A stretch of DNA of 64,000 bases from Escherichia coli (GTDB taxonomy: Bacteria > Pseudomonadota > Gammaproteobacteria > Enterobacterales > Enterobacteriaceae): NCBI RefSeq assembly GCF_003334785.1, contig NZ_QOWV01000004.1. One strand, 5' to 3'. This document shows positions 50,113-50,360 of this stretch, one piece after another; the stretch's first letter is position 1; the number at the start of each line of letters is the position of its first letter. The notes beneath the pieces were generated by a model. The model did no database searches. It worked only from the letters and a program-made list of their open reading frames with translations, and was not told the origin of the DNA. The translations under genes were made by a program, and so were the position numbers.

Positions 50113-50360
50113 AGTAAGTCCTTTCGTAAAACTTTCGTTTCATTTCGTTTTGCCTATTAACGCCTTTCTATTAAGCAAATGCAAGCCCACCTTGCCCATT
50201 GACGCAAGCTACTCTCGTTTCAGTGACTTTCATTATGTTTCTTTTGTGAATCAGATCAGAAAACTATTATCTTTCGTTTTATTTTTATCTCACCATGACG
50301 CAGTATCAACTGAAACAAAACGAAAGATTAATATCGCAGTAATCTGAACTGGAGAGGAAA
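50113..50360. promoter_or_regulatory. agaR / kbaZ divergent control region with repeated ctttcgttt / aaacgaaag operator-like motifs
   Basis: At least five copies of the TTTCGTTT core in both orientations read directly (e.g. ctttcgtaaaactttcgtttcatttcgtttt; atctttcgttttatttt; aaacaaaacgaaagat). Confidence 0.65.

Follow-up and report, generated by a model that had tools for sequence, protein, structure and literature searches.

An array of probable AgaR operators in the agaR–kbaZ and agaA–agaS spacers of Escherichia coli

The spacer between the divergent genes agaR and kbaZ and the region upstream of agaS contain a set of repeated sites that are very likely the operators of AgaR, a repressor of the DeoR/GlpR family encoded by the adjacent gene. 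Chance falls far short of explaining the sites, which are specific to these promoters, and both their sequence and their spacing are conserved across the Enterobacterales. An array of AgaR operators at the aga regulon was already known, and in this sense the observation is real but ordinary; what can be considered mildly new is the rigid geometry of the control region across genera and the mode in which direct repeats are read.

The locus and its repeated words

The DNA analyzed here (the window) is a 64,000-nt stretch of the E. coli chromosome with a complete aga/gam cluster, in the order garD–prlF–yhaV–agaR, then the divergent kbaZ–agaV–agaW–agaE–agaF–agaA, and finally agaS–kbaY–agaB–agaC–agaD–agaI–yraH. 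The gene agaR (49303-50112, minus strand) encodes the DeoR/GlpR-family repressor of the aga regulon. On the plus strand, kbaZ (also agaZ; 50361-51641) has a GTG start preceded by a conserved ribosome-binding site, GGAGAGG (50351-50357), and is the first gene of the operon kbaZ-agaVWEF-agaA, while agaS (55728-56882) starts with ATG. A preliminary description of this DNA had identified these three genes correctly, as supported by the open reading frames and the RefSeq annotation. Positions 50113-50360 (248 bp) correspond exactly to the divergent agaR–kbaZ spacer, which is AT-rich (36% G+C), and a 1171-bp query with agaR and this spacer had matches of at least 95% identity in 5323 of 5426 complete E. 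coli genomes, with the annotation agaR and kbaZ.

All five genes agaV, agaW, agaE, agaF and agaA are intact (51664-55377), lacking the 2.3-kb agaW–agaA deletion of K-12, and agaC and agaI are also full-length open reading frames. This apparently intact aga/gam genotype is that of a strain that utilizes GalNAc and GalN, such as E. coli C. In an Rfam scan no RNA family was detected in either aga spacer; elsewhere in the window the scan matched RNase P RNA (rnpB, 41663-42039, minus strand) and two tandem copies of naRNA4 (2861-3042, minus strand), a REP-derived nucleoid-associated RNA family.

Four exact copies of the 8-mer core TTTCGTTT/AAACGAAA were found in the agaR–kbaZ spacer, three on the plus strand (50133, 50143 and 50272) and one on the minus strand (50318), and the number increases to eight when one mismatch is allowed. 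When the spacer was shuffled with its dinucleotides preserved, the mean was 0.06 exact cores, and none of 2000 shuffles reached four copies. Chance is excluded as the source of these core words. The agaA–agaS spacer has three more exact cores, at 55430-55437 (plus), 55579-55586 (plus) and 55665-55672 (minus), in such a way that seven of the eight exact cores of the whole window are located in the two aga spacers. The 8-mer alone gives a modest result when tested over the whole window, with 8 copies observed versus 3.97 expected.

The preliminary description had counted at least five cores, in both orientations, within 250 bp; the two orientations hold, but the number of exact copies is four. 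Its fifth copy, CTTTCGTAA at 50121, differs from the 8-mer at two positions and is not conserved. As candidate sites, both CTTTCGTAA (50121-50129) and a near-copy, TCTCGTTT (50213-50220), were rejected on the basis of their conservation, 0.47 and 0.29, respectively. The strings that it quoted are present in the DNA, atctttcgttttatttt at 50269-50285 and aaacaaaacgaaagat at 50314-50329, with the position of ctttcgtaaaactttcgtttcatttcgtttt a few bases off (50121-50151, given as 50114-50150). The recurrence of the core before agaS, also claimed there, was borne out by the copies at 55579-55586 and 55665-55672, to which the one at 55430-55437 has to be added. Absent from that description were also a site without the CG (50224-50247) and an adjoining CRP-like site.

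The window was also scanned with WRMMTTTCRTTTYRTTTYNYTTKK, a sequence that we take to be the 24-mer AgaR consensus, allowing up to 3 mismatches. Six matches were detected versus 0.16 expected, all of them within the two aga spacers: 50129-50152 (plus, 0 mismatches), 50224-50247 (plus, 1) and 50306-50329 (minus, 3) in the first, and 55416-55439 (plus, 3), 55575-55598 (plus, 1) and 55653-55676 (minus, 0) in the second. A full-text literature search for this consensus string gave no match. A position weight matrix trained only on agaS-upstream sites from outside Escherichia was then applied to both strands of the window. A scan of this kind had been proposed in the preliminary description as the check on its motifs, and the outcome was decisive in their favor, as the two aga spacers contain all of the top seven matches (55575, 55655, 50129, 50308, 50268, 50224 and 55416). 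With this foreign-trained matrix, the four matches of the agaR–kbaZ spacer rank 3rd to 6th in the 64 kb, with scores between 20.8 and 28.0 bits. The best match outside the aga spacers, TTCATTTCATTTTGATACACTT (38660-38681, minus strand, 14.6 bits), is located in AT-rich DNA between tdcA and tdcR and is probably fortuitous.

A synthetic promoter with CTTTCGTTTCATTT(T)CGTTT, described as "the AgaR binding sequence from P_kbaZ", was repressed in an AgaR-dependent manner (PMC8667592, Table S3 and text). This 20-bp word corresponds to positions 50132-50151 of the window, the only difference being an additional T in the text-extracted table. The operators recognized by these comparisons are located between the divergent genes agaR and kbaZ and, before agaS, no more than 155 nt from its start.

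Anatomy of the control regions

The real unit of the array is not the 8-mer but a stretch of around 16-24 bp made of a pair of direct 10-bp repeats (consensus CTTTCGTTTYRTTTC), which reads CTTTCGTTTY and then RTTTC..., with TTTCGTTT being the best-conserved word inside the site. In the four sites of the agaR–kbaZ spacer, named O1 to O4, the pairs of units are CTTTCGTTTC ATTTCG, CTTTCATTAT GTTTCT, CTTTCGTTTT ATTTTT and, inverted, CTTTCGTTTT GTTTCA. Conservation is given below as the identity to the E. coli base.

O1 (AAACTTTCGTTTCATTTCGTTTTG, 50129-50152, plus strand) contains two exact cores, scores 28.0 bits and has a conservation of 0.88 over 74 spacers. It is placed 17-40 nt upstream of the agaR ATG and is likely the autoregulation site of this gene. 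A conserved block adjoins it (50153-50189, conservation 0.88 and 0.84), with an extra CCTTTC unit (50163-50168) and the word AATGCAAGCCCA (50178-50189), and this block probably contains the agaR promoter core. The word AATGCAAGCCCA shows 0.84 identity over the 74 spacers and no AgaR-like or CRP-like motif, and it may be the -35 region of agaR on the minus strand (TTGCAT).

O2 (TGACTTTCATTATGTTTCTTTTGT, 50224-50247, plus strand) has no CG core and scores 20.8 bits, with a conservation of 0.85; the word CTTTCATTATGTTTCT inside it is unchanged in 51 of 71 spacers. The final three bases of O2 are shared with the left arm of the CRP-like site (TGTGAATCAGATCAGA, 50245-50260, conservation 0.84), which has one mismatch to TGTGAN6TCACA. 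Since this motif by itself is not enriched in the window (32 observed versus 25.9 expected), the putative CRP site rests on its position and conservation, the kbaZ promoter being a known target of CRP. Genomic SELEX recovered kbaZ together with other known targets of CRP (PMC3105977).

Just downstream of the CRP-like site is O3 (TATCTTTCGTTTTATTTTTATCTC, 50268-50291, plus strand; 21.7 bits, conservation 0.86), which is beyond the 3-mismatch threshold of the consensus and was recovered by the matrix. This site is probably over the kbaZ promoter core. O4 (AATCTTTCGTTTTGTTTCAGTTGA on the minus strand, 50306-50329; 26.6 bits, conservation 0.84) is inverted and located downstream of O3, 32-55 nt upstream of the kbaZ GTG. 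Together, O3 and O4 form an inverted repeat of 16 nt with 94% complementarity according to a repeat finder that also recovers the same families of sites independently. A sigma-70 scan of both aga spacers gave no usable promoter on the plus strand and two weak matches on the minus strand in the kbaZ-proximal part.

Upstream of agaS, OS1 (CAAATTTCGTTTTATTTCTTTTTT, 55575-55598, plus strand) is the first match of the matrix, with 32.0 bits, and is conserved upstream of agaS in 59 sequences. OS2 (TGCCTTTCGTTTCATTTCACTTGG on the minus strand, 55653-55676; 29.1 bits) is also conserved, and it is inverted, 52-75 nt upstream of the agaS ATG and around 95 bp from OS1 in most genera. Between them lies a probable agaS promoter core (55604-55637, plus strand), proposed from its conservation, with TTGAAC, the word CTTTCAGTATCTTTTC (55609-55624) and then TATAGATTTTAAT. 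In E. coli the second of these three elements reads as a degenerate AgaR-type repeat (CTTTCAGTTTCTTTTC), and in other genera as a canonical one (CTTTCGTTTTCTTTTC). The kbaZ and agaS promoters therefore share a plan, with an upstream site, a site over the probable core (between -35 and -10 at agaS) and an inverted downstream site.

Directly 3' of the agaA stop (55377) there is a hairpin (55395-55420) followed by a T-rich tract with the seventh exact core (55430-55437), the whole element (55395-55439, plus strand) being a stem and then a U-tract with -10.2 kcal/mol. Most probably this element terminates transcription of the kbaZ-agaA operon. The T-tract itself (TTTCTTTTTCTTTCGTTTT, 55416-55439, plus strand) scores 15.8 bits in the matrix, as a weak AgaR site would, and similar words were found 203-282 nt upstream of agaS in 9 other loci. 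Since it also forms the U-tract of a hairpin of terminator type, the tract was kept as an ambiguous candidate for a third agaS operator; it may have a second role as a distal operator of this gene. The terminator is followed, before the agaS promoter, by GC-rich nested inverted repeats of REP/BIME-like type (55447-55535; for example, 55457-55473 with 55516-55532), which make the agaA–agaS spacer longer than in other genera.

The comparison with K-12 MG1655 showed a single difference in the agaR–kbaZ spacer, a T instead of a C at 50265, outside all the sites, and two in the agaA–agaS spacer, at 55574 and 55617. Position 55617 is A in the window and T in K-12, in strain 300709 and in an Escherichia sp., in the context CTTTCAGT[A/T]TCTTTTC (…AGTATC…). 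This change inside the degenerate repeat could result in slightly weaker repression or in an altered promoter.

Conservation across the Enterobacterales

The AgaR protein was used to search one genome per species, and 80 loci from around 25 enterobacterial genera were obtained, with proteins 81-99% identical. The sites accompany the agaR orthologue and are conserved over these loci. When both gene starts were aligned, the length of the agaR–kbaZ spacer was 245-251 bp in 72 of 74 loci. Compared with the four sites, identity to the E. coli base was as low as 0.31 in the linker 50190-50223, 0.47 at 50121-50129 and 0.29 over the near-copy (50213-50222). In a circular-shift test the conservation inside the four sites versus outside was only moderately extreme (4 of 247 shifts), the spacer having other conserved blocks besides them, namely the CRP-like site and promoter elements.

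The distances between elements were also measured. From O2, the CRP-like site is at 18 bp and O3 at 44 bp in all 71 spacers, whereas O3 and O4 are separated by 55 bp in 64 of them, and O1 and the CCTTTC unit by 32 bp in 69. By contrast, the distance from O1 to O2 is variable among genera (91-103 bp, mode 96). The length of the spacer is fixed although the 34-bp stretch at 50190-50223 is almost unconserved; a constraint on distance rather than on sequence is suggested for this stretch.

The specificity of the motif was evident at the level of the loci. In 70 spacers from outside Escherichia, TTTCGTTT was the commonest 8-mer, with 207 copies, presence in 70 of 70 and a 56-fold excess relative to the remaining parts of the loci. 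Of the consensus matches in the 77 non-Escherichia loci, 188 were located in agaR–kbaZ spacers, 100 within 250 nt upstream of agaS and 16 in a class "elsewhere". Inspection of the 17 unclassified matches, with Escherichia included, assigned 11 of them to spacers missed by the gene calls and 4 to distal positions upstream of agaS, in such a way that 2 matches are truly elsewhere in around 1.29 Mb (2-4 outside aga control regions).

The repressor, its probable action and related systems

The AgaR protein of the window is identical to that of K-12 (269 of 269 residues, 100%). It matches the NCBIfam equivalog NF040755 (AgaR) with 465 bits over a cut-off of 260, and it has an N-terminal HTH_DeoR domain (Pfam PF08220, 3.4e-21) and a C-terminal DeoRC sensor domain (PF00455, 4.5e-55). 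The two domains and the score above the cut-off place AgaR in the DeoR/GlpR family. Thus, the regulator encoded next to the spacer is AgaR. A search of the PDB with its sequence (E ≤ 1e-5) produced a sole match, the sensor domain of DeoR, and no DNA-bound relative. As no DeoR-family protein–DNA complex came out of this search of solved structures, the binding to direct repeats has no structural precedent for comparison.

The promoters P_R, P_Z and P_S have been named, and the deletion of agaR leads to constitutive expression of agaA and agaS, with GalNAc producing 30- to 500-fold induction (PMC3668189). AgaR binding and repression at these three promoter regions come from literature on K-12 DNA (PMC3668189). 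The repression is relieved by GalNAc or GalN. The identity of AgaR with the K-12 protein, the near-identical spacer, this literature and the scans support the preliminary reading of the motifs as AgaR sites that control three promoters.

Two other explanations would assign the sites a different role. The conserved T-rich words could be mainly promoter and terminator architecture (-35 and -10 elements, A/T-rich upstream elements, U-tracts of terminators), with an incidental likeness to a repressor motif. O3 and 55609-55624 are in fact located where promoter cores are expected, and the tract at 55416-55439 comes after a hairpin directly past the agaA stop, in a terminator-like manner, so such an origin could hold for a subset formed by this tract and the words of O3 and the agaS core. 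Both of these words coincide in part with probable promoter elements, and some of their conservation may be due to promoter function. For the array as a whole we regard this explanation as improbable, because the same 16-mer, including the CG, is present in both orientations at O1, O2, O4 and OS2, which cannot all be promoter cores, because hardly any copies exist in 1.3 Mb of flanking DNA, where other promoters and terminators abound, and because an isolated copy confers AgaR-dependent repression (PMC8667592).

The motif could also be bound by another protein, for instance SrlR, GlpR or a further DeoR-family paralogue, or else a nucleoid protein that prefers AT-rich DNA. Several E. coli DeoR/GlpR paralogues score against the AgaR sequence, and the spacer has the low G+C content already mentioned. 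Nevertheless, in all the genera studied the motif goes together with agaR and the aga genes and hardly ever appears in other parts of the loci, AgaR is the protein to which binding and repression are attributed in the literature (PMC3668189, PMC8667592), and proteins that bind AT-rich DNA non-specifically do not require a conserved CG-containing word with fixed spacing, all of which makes this origin very improbable. Even less credit, practically none, can be given to the chance build-up of a T-rich 8-mer in low-complexity intergenic DNA: the T-richness of the spacer and the modest whole-window count would agree with it, but the local shuffles and the conservation of words and spacing across around 25 genera do not. 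The identification of the repeats as AgaR operators is the one that we maintain.

In the absence of inducer, AgaR oligomers would occupy the arrays and keep RNA polymerase off the kbaZ and agaS promoters. At kbaZ, AgaR would probably also keep CRP off its site, and the overlap of O2 with the left arm of this site would allow a possible competition between both proteins. Judging from their positions, O1 would mediate autoregulation by damping the agaR promoter, O3 and the agaS core word would occlude RNA polymerase, and O4 and OS2 would act downstream of the start site or would form pairs with those located upstream. When cells grow on N-acetylgalactosamine or galactosamine, AgaR would be released, and cAMP-CRP would then activate kbaZ. 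Cooperativity between sites, which the preliminary description had proposed, or looping could also take part. One isolated AgaR site represses less than 10-fold (PMC8667592) and native induction is 30- to 500-fold, a difference that would agree with the joint action of several sites.

A more specific arrangement can tentatively be proposed, although we consider it rather unlikely, in which the aga control region is a repressor–DNA assembly of fixed geometry, with an AgaR tetramer that reads direct repeats and clamps the promoter in a small loop. The invariant O2–CRP–O3–O4 spacing (18, 44 and 55 bp), the length of around 250 bp maintained by the spacer in around 25 genera, and the fact that the kbaZ and agaS promoters are each bracketed by a convergent (inverted) pair of direct-repeat sites would be in favor of it. 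On the other hand, a loop in strict phase between the module next to agaR and that next to kbaZ is made less likely by the variation of 91-103 bp between O1 and O2, and a strict helical phasing of these two sites (95 bp here) was rejected as firm evidence of looping for the same reason.

The significance of the array beyond its correct annotation is small, as these are textbook control elements of the E. coli N-acetylgalactosamine/galactosamine regulon. What is added here is a map of the sites in window coordinates, two corrections to the earlier list of sites, and the unusual rigidity of site spacing and spacer length across the Enterobacterales. Such rigidity could be of use for structural or looping work with a DeoR-family repressor bound to DNA, or for designing GalNAc-responsive expression parts.

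The closest known system is that of K-12, in which AgaR operators at the agaR, agaZ (kbaZ) and agaS promoters were reportedly footprinted by Ray and Larson in 2004 (Mol Microbiol 51:813), and a comparative genomics of the aga regulon is said to have been carried out by Leyn et al. in 2012 (J Biol Chem 287:28047). The locus is the same, as are the repressor (100% identical), the DNA except for one plus two bases, the three promoters, the multiple tandem repeat sites and the CRP input at kbaZ. Nothing of substance is different, apart from the complete cluster without the agaW–agaA deletion and the A instead of T at 55617 in the DNA analyzed here. The GntR-family regulators named AgaR in Streptococcus (S. 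suis AgaR1/AgaR2 and S. pneumoniae AgaR) share only the name and the pathway controlled, being unrelated proteins with unrelated palindromic operators, and they are not relevant to this motif. Control through multiple operators by repressors of the DeoR/GlpR family is also found in E. coli in DeoR at deoO1/O2/OE and in GlpR at the glp operons. These systems have in common with AgaR the HTH_DeoR plus DeoRC architecture and the presence of several operators over around 60-200 bp around promoters, whereas the AgaR sites are direct repeats of a 10-bp unit rather than palindromes.
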